A stretch of DNA of 24,000 nt. Origin: Neisseriales bacterium (GTDB lineage Bacteria > Pseudomonadota > Gammaproteobacteria > Burkholderiales > UBA11063). The stretch lies in contig SSGX01000003.1 of assembly GCA_008017155.1 (NCBI GenBank), forward strand, positions 1-24,000. The letters run 5' to 3'. Below are positions 17,032 to 19,205 of the stretch, one piece after another. A program made the translations under genes and the position numbers. Under the pieces are notes generated by a model, which saw nothing but the letters and a program-made list of their open reading frames with translations, was not told the origin of the DNA and made no database searches. How positions within the stretch are numbered: position 1 is the stretch's first letter; every line of letters starts with the position of its first letter.

Positions 17032-17550
17032 ATGGAAAATAATAAATTACAAAATGCAATCGCGGTTTTTGAATTACAAAATGGGCAATATTGTTTAGAT
17101 GATGTTAAGGCTATTTATCGTAAATTAGCTAGTGCTAATCATCCTGATAAAGGCGGAAATACTGAAACAATGCAGATAATTAACACTGCATTTGCTGAAT
17201 TATGCAAGTTCTTTGAATCTGGCAATGCCACCTTAGATATTAACGAAGATGGCAACGAAGAAGCCAAGCAGTTTAATTTTAGCTTCATTAGTGAGCTAAA
17301 AACTATGCACGGTGTAAAAATTGAAGTTTGCGGTTATTGGGTATGGTTGACTGGTGATACTTATTCACACCACGAAAAAATCAAGGCTTTAGGGTTTAAA
17401 TTCTCAGGGGCTAAAAAAGCGTGGTACTGGTCGCCAACAATAAACCAGTCAACTTATCGCCGAGGTAGTAAATCGTTGAAAAATATCCGCAAGGAATACG
17501 GCAGCCGGATAATCGAAACCGAGGGGCAAAAAGCGCTAACAGCGCATTAA
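17032..17550 (+). CDS. J-domain (DnaJ N-terminal domain) protein with an uncharacterised Trp-rich C-terminal domain
   Basis: 'LDDVKAIYRKLASANHPDKGGNTETMQIINTAFAEL' has helix II, the HPD tripeptide and helix III of a J domain. The C-terminal 'VCGYWVWLTGDTYSHHEKIKALGFKFSGAKKAWYW' is not a DnaJ Zn-finger or CTD. Confidence 0.75.
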   Translation: MENNKLQNAIAVFELQNGQYCLDDVKAIYRKLASANHPDKGGNTETMQIINTAFAELCKFFESGNATLDINEDGNEEAKQFNFSFISELKTMHGVKIEVCGYWVWLTGDTYSHHEKIKALGFKFSGAKKAWYWSPTINQSTYRRGSKSLKNIRKEYGSRIIETEGQKALTAH

Positions 17551-17554
17551 TAAC

Positions 17555-17580
17555 AGCGGGCAATTGCCCGCTAATTTTTA
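17555..17580 (+). terminator. Hairpin plus T-tail after the J-domain gene
   Basis: The 18-nt palindrome agcgggcaattgcccgct (17555-17572) is followed by aattttta. Confidence 0.5.
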
Positions 17581-17606
17581 TTACAAATCATTTAAGGCAG
17601 TAAAAA

Positions 17607-19205
17607 ATGCAAACAAATAAAATAGTTGAAACACTCAAGCAGGAAAATATGGATTTTGAATTTTATCCGACCACGGACGAAATAATAAACGCCATCCGGC
17701 AAAATATGCCGGAATATGGCGGATCTATACTCGATATTGGGGCAGGTAATGGCGTTACCTTGCAAAAACTTACTAGCGGGAAACATTCAGACCGCTGGAC
17801 ACGTTACGCAATCGAAAAAAATCCCATGCTCAAAAGTTTAATTAGCACCGATACTTTAGTAATCGGCGCGGATTTTATGGAAAACACCCTGTTTGATAAA
17901 AAACTGGACGTGATTTTTTGTAATCCCCCATACTCGGATTATTCGGATTGGTGCTTTAAGATTATAGCCGAGGCTAACGCCAAGCATATTTTTTTGGTAA
18001 TACCTGAACGATGGGCAAACGTGCAGAAATTGCAGGACATCATCAAGCAGCGGGGCTATACTGTTAGCTCTCTTGGTTGTTTTGATTTTCTTAATGCCGA
18101 ACGGGCAGCACGTTGCAAAGTTGAAGTAATCTACCTCAAGGCAGACCAAGATTATAAAATGAAAGATTTTTTTGATGTTGAGTTAGAAAAATTCTTCAAA
18201 TTTAATGAGCCGGAATATGAGCATAGTTTCACATTTAAGGAGAAGATGGACGAGAAAAAACAGGCGTTTACCGAGTCAATCAATAATCGCAAGCTGGTTT
18301 GCGGTGGTGATTACGTGCAAGCGATTACCGCACTATATCACGAGGAAGAGCAGCGGATTTATGCCACACTGCGCGGGCTTAGCGAGATAGACAGCTCACT
18401 GCTTGAAGCACTTAATATCGAACTAGGCAAAATTAAAACCTTTATTAAGGACAAATTGCGCGGGCTTGGTTCTAAGTATTGGCGCGAAGTAATTACCAAG
18501 ATGCAGCCAATCGCTAAACGCTTGACTGAGCGCAATCAAAAAGCGCTGTTTAATGCGGTATCTGATGCAAATATGAGCTTTAATGCTGCAAATATCTATA
18601 ACGTCGTAGAGTGGGCTATTAAAACAGCTACGCAGGTAATCGAGCAGCAAACGCTTGATGTTTACGAGGAACTAATCAGCGAGGCTAATTGTACTAAGTA
18701 CCAATCCAACAAAACTATTTTTGTGGGTAATAATTTTGAAACTAAGACCCCCAGCAAATTAAATTTGCGCCTTGTCCTCGAACGCCACGGCGGGATTAAT
18801 TCCGACCGCTGGCAGAGTTCATATTATCCCAAAAATTTAAGCGAGCGCGGGCATATAATGCTGGCAGATTTATTTGTTATCGCTAATAATTTTGGGTTTG
18901 AAATTGATAGCCGAGAAAGTTATTCTCGACATTGGCAATCAGGCGTAAAGCAAGAATTTCTAGCAACTCGCAACGGTGAGAAAGTCACATTAATGACCGT
19001 TAGGGCTTTTTATAATGGTAACTTGCATATTAAATTAAACAAAGAATTTAATCACAAGTTGAACGTAATCAAAGGCAAATATGAGGGCTGGATTCACTCG
19101 GTTGATGATGTTGTAAACGAGTTTGAGGTTAGCGAGATCGAAGCCAAGCAACTATTTGAAGAATTGCCAAAATTGATGGTAAATATTGCTGGGTTATTAA
19201 ACTAA
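17607..19205 (+). CDS. Orphan N6-adenine DNA methyltransferase (N-terminal MTase domain plus a roughly 330-aa C-terminal extension)
   Basis: Motif I is 'ILDIGAGNGV' and motif IV is 'FCNPPYSDY' (NPPY), in the order I then IV. No restriction endonuclease, specificity subunit or helicase gene is adjacent. The C-terminal extension reminds me of DUF4942-type leading-region methylases, but I have not verified this. Confidence 0.8.
   Translation: MQTNKIVETLKQENMDFEFYPTTDEIINAIRQNMPEYGGSILDIGAGNGVTLQKLTSGKHSDRWTRYAIEKNPMLKSLISTDTLVIGADFMENTLFDKKLDVIFCNPPYSDYSDWCFKIIAEANAKHIFLVIPERWANVQKLQDIIKQRGYTVSSLGCFDFLNAERAARCKVEVIYLKADQDYKMKDFFDVELEKFFKFNEPEYEHSFTFKEKMDEKKQAFTESINNRKLVCGGDYVQAITALYHEEEQRIYATLRGLSEIDSSLLEALNIELGKIKTFIKDKLRGLGSKYWREVITKMQPIAKRLTERNQKALFNAVSDANMSFNAANIYNVVEWAIKTATQVIEQQTLDVYEELISEANCTKYQSNKTIFVGNNFETKTPSKLNLRLVLERHGGINSDRWQSSYYPKNLSERGHIMLADLFVIANNFGFEIDSRESYSRHWQSGVKQEFLATRNGEKVTLMTVRAFYNGNLHIKLNKEFNHKLNVIKGKYEGWIHSVDDVVNEFEVSEIEAKQLFEELPKLMVNIAGLLN

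Follow-up and report, generated by a model that had tools for sequence, protein, structure and literature searches.

[quoted passage not shown] These enterobacterial families are themselves uncharacterised; in the literature that we searched, DUF4942 and YdiA occur in annotations only, with no functional study. The best functional analogy is provided by M.EcoGIX and M.BceJIII, single-strand-specific orphan adenine methylases that are encoded in leading regions, are oriented for a single-strand promoter and are thought to protect incoming DNA (PMC7736820; PMC12672017). A precedent for a small J-domain protein from a mobile element is Rki (gene 057w) of phage RB43, which is expressed early and acts via host DnaK, not as a generic co-chaperone (PMC3486835). 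In the same searches, J-domain proteins of leading regions appeared as annotations only, and no functional study of the J family considered below was found. DnaJ and DnaK activate the plasmid initiators P1 RepA, F RepE and R6K pi. In addition, polyomavirus T-antigen carries a J domain together with a replication/DNA module and brings Hsp70 to the replication complex, a case that we use as an analogy only.

We analysed a stretch of 24,000 nucleotides (hereafter the window) of contig C55 from a low-GC, betaproteobacterium-like MAG. Along the contig, RepA and Mpf genes are followed by a module with a J-domain protein gene and a methyltransferase gene, then by DUF29, a TraB-like fragment, a structured region, an RHH-like ORF, T4CP, a TrwC relaxase and SSB. 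The features in and around the module are as follows.

15756-15831, plus strand: left copy of a direct repeat of about 75 nt, with a GC hairpin (TTGGGGGC...GCCCCCAA)
16255-16640, minus strand (predicted transferred strand): long imperfect hairpin, candidate single-strand (Frpo/ssi-type) promoter
16822-16980, plus strand: 52-aa hydrophobic small ORF, with a weak PHROG match (phrog_1692, E 2.7e-5)
16988-17009: terminator-like hairpin after the small ORF
17032-17550, plus strand: J-domain protein gene, 172 aa (minimal J domain, conserved C-terminal domain 95-133, tail helix)
17555-17572, plus strand: terminator-like hairpin between the J gene and the methylase gene, T-run to about 17579
17607-19205, plus strand: gene of a DUF4942-family class I SAM methyltransferase, 532 aa
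19208-19242: perfect hairpin with a 16-bp stem just past the methylase stop, terminator score on the minus strand only
19326-19400, plus strand: right copy of the direct repeat of about 75 nt
20560-21180: structured non-coding region with inverted and direct repeats, candidate oriT by position
21183-24000, plus strand: Dtr operon (RHH-like accessory ORF, 92-aa ORF, T4CP, start of the TrwC-type relaxase)
21875-23797, plus strand: T4CP
from 23797, plus strand: TrwC-type relaxase, 921 aa on the contig

The original prediction had read the J gene and the methylase gene as a candidate leading-region anti-defence pair. Its description of the genes holds: the 172-aa and 532-aa ORFs are real and carry the HPD, the Trp-rich C-terminus, ILDIGAGNG and NPPY that it had ascribed to them, and 27 nt separate the end of the hairpin and T-run from the methylase ATG, as it had counted.

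Judged by its sequence, the J-protein is a member of a large uncharacterised family that joins an intact HPD J domain to a Trp-rich C-terminal domain weakly related to DUF5710. The HPD motif (residues 37-39) falls between predicted helices 22-36 and 44-62, and all 98 aligned family members share H37-P38-D39. A short acidic linker then leads to the 90-aa Trp-rich domain, with tryptophans at positions 103, 105, 131 and 133 of the translated ORF; its conserved part (95-133) is ordered as beta-hairpin, helix and beta-beta and is followed by the tail helix. The G/F-rich and Cys-rich regions are absent from the 172 residues, and the protein is not a canonical DnaJ/CbpA (class A/B Hsp40). Pfam DnaJ matches it below the gathering score (E 1.3e-4, 22.5 bits against 27.8) and is matched by 60/60 diverse family members tested (best 1.4e-12). 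The AF2 model (pLDDT 85) has a J-domain fold. A Foldseek check, which the original prediction had proposed for both proteins, recovered J-domain and methyltransferase folds, but found no match for the C-terminal domain of the J-protein. Indeed, the whole J model matched J domains only (Tim14, DnaJ and T-antigen, with probabilities of at most 0.9 and weak E-values), and no homology to T-antigen was found for the C-terminal domain. With phmmer, PDB sequences gave weak J-domain matches only; a profile of the C-terminal domain had a single match in the PDB, a fructosyltransferase, which we judged to be due to chance.

DUF5710 (PF18974) is the only second family that recurs among J-family members: it is matched by 14 of the 60 tested (best E 1e-4) and weakly by the C-terminal part of the window protein (E 0.039, 14 bits; gathering score 26.5). 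BFVD also returned weak matches to a DUF5710 protein and to a viral topoisomerase I. The family has phage relatives as well (phrog_15863, E 2.9e-32; Fusobacterium phage Fnu1, E 1.5e-9). Compared with Rki, the window protein is likewise a small, mobile-element-encoded J-domain protein with a non-DnaJ C-terminus; unlike Rki, its C-terminus is DUF5710-like, and no sequence relation between the two was detected beyond the J domain.

By sequence, the second gene product belongs to the DUF4942 methyltransferases, in which an N-terminal SAM-methyltransferase domain is joined to the DUF4942 region. DUF4942 (PF13708) matches residues 286-494, within a large C-terminal domain (214-532), with 44 bits and thus above its gathering score of 25; Pfam also reports a weak MTS match at 32-114. 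A precomputed PF13708 match is present in nearly all of the 120 homologues listed; some sources label homologues 'TrmN6' or 'predicted RNA methylase'. The motifs are FYPTT (19-23), ILDIGAGNG (motif I, 41-49) and NPPY (106-109), and N106, P107 and P108 are invariant in 118 sequences. Motif I before motif IV ((D/N)PP(Y/F)) and a large C-terminal domain correspond to the gamma-class N6-adenine layout. Like the leading-region DUF4942 enzymes, the protein is an orphan encoded upstream of a candidate oriT and relaxase, on a strand that fits expression from the transferred strand. It differs from them by its very distant sequence and by its setting, a MOBF plasmid in a low-GC MAG. Hence, DUF4942 methyltransferases being already known leading-region families, the window adds a distant, environmental member. 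The likeness to M.EcoGIX and M.BceJIII is functional only: these belong to another protein family, have DPPY in place of NPPY and contain no DUF4942 domain, and the M.EcoGIX homologue on F, a 227-aa 'DNA methylase', differs in size and architecture.

The commonest neighbours of the methylase family in 80 genome loci are SSB (15), a large ParB_N protein (10), RecT, DnaC-like and Prok-E2_D proteins. On a Vibrio fluvialis plasmid, a single strand carries psiA, parB-like genes, a DUF4942 methylase, radC, T4CP and a MobF relaxase. No Escherichia plasmid was found by tblastn with the methylase at E <= 1e-3, and megablast of the 16-20 kb segment against PLSDB gave no match.

We infer that the methylase acts on DNA. 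The competing idea of an RNA or protein substrate (rRNA, tRNA or a glutamine side chain), by which the enzyme would reprogram the host instead of protecting DNA, seems unlikely to us. It draws on the closest solved folds, which are those of the rRNA adenine dimethyltransferases KsgA, Dim1 and Erm together with Mtq2, on weak NCBIfam matches to PrmC and Erm, and on the RNA-methylase names given to homologues; NPPY itself is common to DNA, RNA and protein methyltransferase classes. On the other hand, an FYPTT-type motif ahead of motif I is a trait of gamma-class DNA amino-methyltransferases, and weak matches to phage 'DNA methyltransferase' PHROGs, Pfam Dam and N6_Mtase and PADLOC mad2 point to DNA, as does the near confinement of the family to DNA-entry contexts of mobile elements, with SSB, ParB and RecT as neighbours. 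A phmmer search of PDB sequences with the methylase returned nothing meaningful. The mad2 match (E 6.6e-8) could also be taken to mean that the methylase is what remains of a defence system, based on restriction or associated with methylation, that has lost its partners. This is very improbable: the match (residues 15-215) is limited to the generic Rossmann domain, the ORFs scanned on the contig yielded no nuclease, specificity or helicase domain, in line with the original prediction that no cognate gene lay nearby, and no nuclease recurs as a neighbour in the 80 methylase loci.

A functional pairing of the J-protein with the methylase is not supported by these genomic comparisons. The original prediction had suggested a survey of co-occurrence across elements, and the outcome went against the pair, as the two families are almost always apart. 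A full-length J family member adjoins the methylase in 1/80 methylase loci, two more of which hold other J-domain proteins (one adjacent, one about 3 kb off); conversely, the methylase is present in 1/79 J loci, 46 of which extend at least 2 kb downstream. Four congeneric genomes contain 10 full-length J copies and no DUF4942 homologue anywhere, and a J paralogue on contig C37 has no such methylase on its 5.6 kb. By tblastn, the J family is found in 2,729 PLSDB plasmids (2,205 of them conjugative), against 36 for the methylase family. Adjacency is limited to close relatives of the window and one distant case. Among these, a relative on a different backbone with a NikA/MOBP relaxase shares with the window only the J block and the methylase block (82-83% identity), and the synteny is repeated in a second relative and in metagenome locus L113. 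Locus L067, from an alphaproteobacterial MAG, has a 32%-identical methylase directly preceded by a complete member of the J family; at L088, from an Elusimicrobia MAG, this place is taken by a J domain with a different C-terminal region, which may resemble the ArdC N-terminal domain. Such repeated neighbourhood, together with the adjacency in the window itself, could suggest a two-component unit in which DnaK, brought in by the J-protein, folds, activates or targets the methylase. We consider this improbable in view of the counts above, of the 1-3 unrelated ORFs that lie between the two genes in relatives and of the terminator-like hairpin that separates them in the window. Most likely, the two proteins act independently.

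Turning to placement, both genes lie 1.4-4 kb upstream of the structured intergenic region and point toward it, and they share their direction with the tra genes and the T4CP/TrwC operon downstream; the contig map agrees on this with the original prediction, to which the segment had also looked GC-richer than the tra genes. Indeed, GC is 0.38-0.42 at 16.5-19 kb against 0.28-0.36 over most of the window and about 0.35 genome-wide, with peaks of 0.38-0.385 in two stretches of the Mpf region (about 7.5-9 kb and 16-17 kb). In the structured region, a candidate oriT by position, imperfect inverted-repeat arms of 50 nt lie at 20731-20852, the motif ATTCCCG(G)TGGATAA recurs, and two palindromes occupy 21091-21112 and 21143-21162; matches to the R388-type (TGTCTATAGC) and F-type (GGTGTGGTGC) nic motifs are no more numerous than in shuffled sequence. 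Upstream of the J gene, the 386-nt hairpin, folded as minus-strand DNA, has a dG of -93 kcal/mol, compared with -38.1 +/- 4.4 for 100 shuffles (z = -12.6). A 106-aa ORF that overlaps it (16309-16629) has no family match. Like F Frpo and ColIb ssi, the hairpin is several hundred nt long, on the predicted transferred strand and upstream of leading genes transcribed toward oriT, a likeness that rests on folding excess and position.

In most of the plasmid contexts examined, the J gene precedes the relaxase operon and is directed toward it. This is the arrangement in IncX5/U, IncI2 and Acinetobacter MPF_F plasmids, with a distance of 2.5 kb to T4CP and a MobF relaxase in an Acinetobacter plasmid. 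On an Enterococcus plasmid, the J gene is just downstream of T4CP and putative relaxase genes, beside ssb. On a Vibrio MPF_F plasmid, an SLT gene comes after it, and the stretch shown includes no relaxase. Strong single-strand folding upstream of J was again found in the Enterococcus (z = -18) and Acinetobacter (z = -6.3) plasmids. The predicted location of both genes in a leading region is thus supported by synteny, orientation, parallel plasmids and the single-strand hairpin upstream of the genes, and the kind of methylase is supported too; the functional link between the two genes is not.

In IncX plasmids, the J gene adjoins the replication initiator gene and is divergently transcribed from it, and Acinetobacter plasmids have Rep_3 initiators with a fused DUF5710 (PMC11233732). 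Both observations fit a different account, in which the module is an insertion among decaying tra genes that serves vegetative maintenance, the J-protein helping the initiator and the methylase having an epigenetic or housekeeping role. The transfer genes could be read in the same way: the F-type (MPF_F) set looks incomplete and its Mpf genes fragmentary (TraC is a 370-aa C-terminal piece and TraB a 150-aa piece), so that the element may be unable to self-transfer now. Moreover, the module differs in composition and is flanked by the direct repeats of about 75 nt, as expected for an acquired cassette; the two copies are about 86-95% identical, with one compensatory stem change (T-A versus G-C), and no further copy was found in the 2.47-Mb assembly. 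The contig, for which no terminal overlap was found in support of circularity, could not be closed. We nevertheless give this account little weight: several plasmid types that are unrelated to one another repeat the orientation toward the relaxase operon, J genes are preceded by long single-strand hairpins, and the methylase family keeps company with SSB, ParB-like, PsiA and RadC, a classic leading-region set. SSB is a typical leading-region gene; on the present contig it lies downstream of the relaxase, on the opposite side from the module, which speaks against the leading-region placement.

Overall, the reading that we hold to be probable is that 15.75-19.4 kb is a module of GC-richer cargo, situated in what is predicted to be the leading region of a MOBF-type plasmid, with a methylase and a J-protein that act independently. 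By analogy with F and R388, the relaxase would nick upstream of its own operon (at about 20.6-21.2 kb) and lead the minus strand into the recipient, so that the methylase gene, the J gene and the long hairpin would enter early. Both genes have the minus strand as template, and the 386-nt hairpin could serve as a single-strand promoter from which the small ORF and the genes of the J-protein and the methylase are driven before second-strand synthesis. Read-through from such a promoter is not assured, because both the small ORF and the J gene have a terminator-like hairpin downstream. The methylase would most likely N6-methylate adenines of the incoming plasmid and so pre-empt restriction, with its DUF4942 domain possibly acting as target-recognition domain. 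For the J-protein, the HPD J domain would most likely switch on recipient DnaK, and the DUF5710-like domain would direct this chaperone to a DNA-associated client during establishment, the candidates being the replication initiator and the relaxase-DNA complex. Alternatively, the J-protein might perturb DnaK-sigma32 control, as Rki of phage RB43 does.

The window methylase extends a family that crowds plasmid leading regions. The more useful outcome is the J-protein, as the conserved two-domain family to which it belongs is carried by thousands of sequenced plasmids, IncX3 and IncI2 backbones among them; besides Acinetobacter and Enterococcus plasmids, the family also occurs in phages and in 2,184 representative clusters. 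In published papers, plasmids of the IncX3 and IncI2 types carry blaNDM-5 and mcr-1. As a tentative generalisation, somewhat less probable than its opposite, J-family proteins may be made from single-strand promoters right after entry and hijack recipient DnaK at the incoming DNA, by activating the initiator, by refolding or releasing the translocated relaxase, or by lifting DnaK control of sigma32; the occasional linkage to an orphan methylase would then reflect shared residence in an early-entry gene array. If the J-protein does recruit recipient Hsp70 at establishment, conjugation would involve a host take-over step of a new kind.

A sub-threshold Rfam match on the terminator between the J and methylase genes was regarded as noise, the scan of 15-21.9 kb giving no other match. 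A protein of about 150 aa was considered as a universal partner of J and rejected: neither the window nor the plasmid loci tested contain it, and its gene lies 3' of J in 52/79 metagenome loci, in phage contexts with terminase and portal genes. In relatives of the window, small ORFs of 54 and 60 aa occupy the same place upstream of J as the 52-aa ORF, which they resemble in size and position.

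The J-protein encoded in the window belongs to a widespread, unstudied family borne by mobile elements. This family is the part of the locus worth pursuing, and the J-protein is the follow-up target here; the adjacent methylase extends a known leading-region kind by a new, distant member. The features concerned are the following.

Features of the J/methylase module and its surroundings in the window
5298-6410, TraC piece of 370 aa, aligning to residues 417-719 of the 800-position TraC profile
15756-15831, first copy of a direct repeat of about 75 nt
17032-17550, + strand, J gene, 172 aa
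17555-17572, hairpin followed by a T-run, terminator-like
17607-19205, + strand, methylase gene, 532 aa
19326-19400, second copy of the direct repeat
20107-20559, TraB-like piece of 150 aa

Both open reading frames are present as first described. The J-protein has its HPD motif at residues 37-39 and a Trp-rich C-terminal half, and the methylase carries ILDIGAGNG at 41-49 and NPPY at 106-109. The module segment has a GC content of 0.38-0.42, against 0.28-0.36 for most tra genes (local peaks 0.385) and about 0.35 for the genome. The observations of the original prediction are confirmed; its interpretation, an anti-defence candidate pair in a leading region, is partly supported.

The contig, C55, is 29.9 kb long, with the window as its first 24 kb, in a MAG of 2.47 Mb and 63 contigs. 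It starts with RepA, a PspA-like gene and a TPR gene, followed by the C-terminal piece of TraC, TraU, TrbC, DsbC, thioredoxin, TraN-like, SLT and TraW-like genes. Next come the J/methylase module, DUF29, the TraB-like piece, a structured non-coding region of 600 bp, an RHH-like ORF, a 92-aa ORF, the T4CP gene and a TrwC relaxase gene (921 aa), and the contig ends with SSB, Fic (minus strand) and ParA. The F-type transfer apparatus looks incomplete or degraded, and closure of C55 into a circle was not achieved. The SSB gene (C55 26633-26980; 6633-6980 in locus L004) is directly 3' of the relaxase gene, with the Dtr operon lying between it and the J/methylase module, and Fic follows on the other strand.

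The nearest named homologues of the J-protein are found in Neisseriales and Burkholderiales MAGs. In its AF2 model (pLDDT 85), a minimal J domain precedes a β-hairpin (residues 95-108), a helix (111-119) and two strands (123-133), with a further helix as the tail. Across the family, HPD is invariant, Pfam DnaJ is matched by all 60 diverse relatives tested, and the C-terminal domain follows the consensus IE.CG.W.W..G.T...K..LK..GF.WS..KK.WYW.P...RG...IR..YGS. Structure and profile searches found no solved relative of this domain. The sole recurrent second Pfam family is DUF5710, matched by 14 of the 60 relatives (best E 1e-4) and by the window J-protein at E 0.039; a fused DUF5710 is carried by Rep_3 initiators of Acinetobacter plasmids (PMC11233732).

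The family comprises 2,184 representative clusters at E ≤ 1e-3. By tblastn, it occurs in 2,729 PLSDB plasmids (2,526 near full length, 2,205 typed conjugative), with host genera including Escherichia, Klebsiella, Enterococcus, Acinetobacter and Piscirickettsia. Among searchable papers, it appears only as a "dnaJ" annotation within plasmid backbones. In the leading-region survey, it is absent from the main text, and the supplement has only a 5-member DnaJ family. Its plasmid positions are as follows, the A. baumannii plasmid being the nearest parallel to the window.

Position of the J gene in plasmids
IncX5/U: first in a co-oriented array, with the relaxase gene 4.4 kb downstream
IncX3: comes first after the replication initiator and heads a run of small co-oriented genes
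IncI2: on the same strand as mobC and the relaxase gene, 7.5 kb upstream of them
A. baumannii MPF_F/MOBF plasmid: on the same strand as the T4CP and MobF relaxase genes, 2.5 kb upstream of them
Vibrio MPF_F plasmid: an SLT gene comes next
Enterococcus rep9 plasmid: ssb and a nuclease gene follow directly
Legionella plasmid: part of an array to which an antirestriction gene also belongs

Phages also carry the family (phrog_15863, E 2.9e-32; Fusobacterium phage Fnu1), as do many metagenome loci with terminase and portal genes, largely from gut and rumen. In 52 of 79 metagenome loci (L118-L186), a conserved protein of about 150 aa, without Pfam match, is encoded within about 16 nt 3' of the J-family gene, and up to 24 of the loci have terminase and P22-like portal genes on the opposite strand. 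The loci with this protein represent a J-protein subfamily of phages, which has a partner of its own.

The methylase matches Pfam DUF4942 (44 bits, gathering score 25) and has an N-terminal class I methyltransferase domain. Residues kept among 118 homologues include D16, Y20 and P21 (FYPTT block), D43, G45, G47 and N106-P107-P108. The solved folds closest to the Rossmann domain of its AF2 model (pLDDT 83) are the rRNA adenine methyltransferases KsgA, Dim1 and Erm, together with Mtq2; its C-terminal DUF4942 part, helical and β, has no match among solved structures. In addition, it weakly matches DNA-methylase profiles (PHROG "DNA methyltransferase" families, Pfam Dam, N6_Mtase, PADLOC mad2). 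Given these structural and profile matches, N6-adenine chemistry is likely, and we infer DNA as the substrate.

Methylase homologues are scattered over many phyla at 29-36% identity. Recurrent neighbours at 80 genome loci are SSB (15/80), a ParB_N protein of about 600 aa (10/80), RecT, a DnaC/IstB-like ATPase, a PAPS-reductase-domain protein and Prok-E2_D; such neighbours are typical of the genes that serve conjugative elements and phages early or during establishment. A Vibrio fluvialis plasmid carries, on a single strand, psiA, two parB-like genes, a 34%-identical methylase, radC, T4CP and a MobF relaxase, that is, the layout of the window plus textbook leading-region markers. Homologues at 60% identity have phage-like-looking surroundings (ART-PolyVal, PD-(D/E)XK and NAMPT genes), with no J gene called nearby. 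Two families described as "Uncharacterized; DUF4942; Methyltransferase" are among the 100 largest leading-region families, one of them with 2,171 members whose median position from oriT is 1 (Samuel & Burstein 2024, PMC11541004, supplementary file 3). Since DUF4942 families are already on this list, the proposal of a leading-region methylase fits a known pattern. In the Vibrio alfacsensis plasmids NZ_AP019851.1, NZ_LC081338.1 and NZ_AP024167.1 (hits H62-H64), the homologous gene is split in two; the parts are separated by about 1.3 kb that includes a GIY-YIG nuclease gene, which looks like a homing-endonuclease or intron-type insertion.

The proposed pairing of J-protein and methylase fared less well. 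The window and relative L008 have just two blocks in common, the J block at 83% nucleotide identity and the methylase block at 82%, and the relaxase of L008 is of a different type (NikA/MOBP). In the window these blocks meet at 17591/17592, whereas 1 kb with three ORFs separates them in L008. A second relative has one ORF between the genes and the same T4CP-TrwC downstream; in L113 they are adjacent, and in L067 a full J-family member adjoins a 32%-identical methylase. In an Elusimicrobia MAG (L088 5608-6372), a gene directly upstream of a DUF4942 methylase encodes a J domain with a different C-terminal region, which may resemble the N-terminal ssDNA-binding domain of ArdC. Linkage was found within the window's clade and at two distant loci (L067 and L088), but is generally absent: 77 of 80 methylase loci are without any J protein, 78 of 79 J loci without methylase, and plasmid counts are 2,729 for J against 36 for methylase. 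Four congeneric genomes with ten full-length J copies have no DUF4942 homologue. Nor does the 5.6-kb contig C37 of the same MAG (G000 C37, L005, 573-5589), where a 72%-identical J paralogue follows an IS630-like transposase fragment and precedes a 112-aa orphan ORF, two ORFs upstream of a Type I R-M locus (HsdS fragment, HsdM, RhuM-family gene, HsdS). There being no obligate pair, we conclude that the J and methylase genes reside independently in one and the same early-entry gene array and that, as neighbours, these two sometimes move together; the pairing is incidental.

In the DNA preceding J genes, folding of the strand complementary to the J gene is much better than that of shuffled sequence. 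For window positions 16255-16640, dG is -93 versus -38 ± 4.4 (z = -12.6); z reaches -18 in an Enterococcus plasmid and -6.3 in an Acinetobacter plasmid, and a sliding-window scan gave a like result in most loci. This would fit expression from single-strand promoters of the Frpo/ssi type. What the analysis shows directly is how the genes and domains are built, which families they belong to, their synteny and orientation, and the excess of folding; beyond this, a mechanism may be proposed. With oriT position and transfer polarity as suggested by analogy with F and R388, the module could be transcribed early from single-stranded DNA; the methylase would counter restriction by DNA adenine methylation, and the J-protein may recruit DnaK to a DNA-associated client. 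Phage RB43 Rki is a mobile-element J-protein that acts early via DnaK, not as a general co-chaperone (PMC3486835).

The direct repeats bracket the hairpin, a small ORF, the J gene and the methylase gene. They carry a GC hairpin whose stem is preserved by one compensatory change (T-A to G-C), and no further copies were found in the rest of the assembly. They could be recombination sites or scars, secondary nick sites, regulatory sites or elements that are structured as single strands. The sequence after the repeat hairpin, read on the minus strand, is CACCCCGCTAGG. The DUF29 protein (19484-19921, E 7e-52), encoded between the module and the TraB-like ORF, matches phage family phrog_11797 (E 2.7e-30); its gene has a terminator and a near-consensus promoter of its own (TTGCAA-18-TATAAT, 19413-19442).
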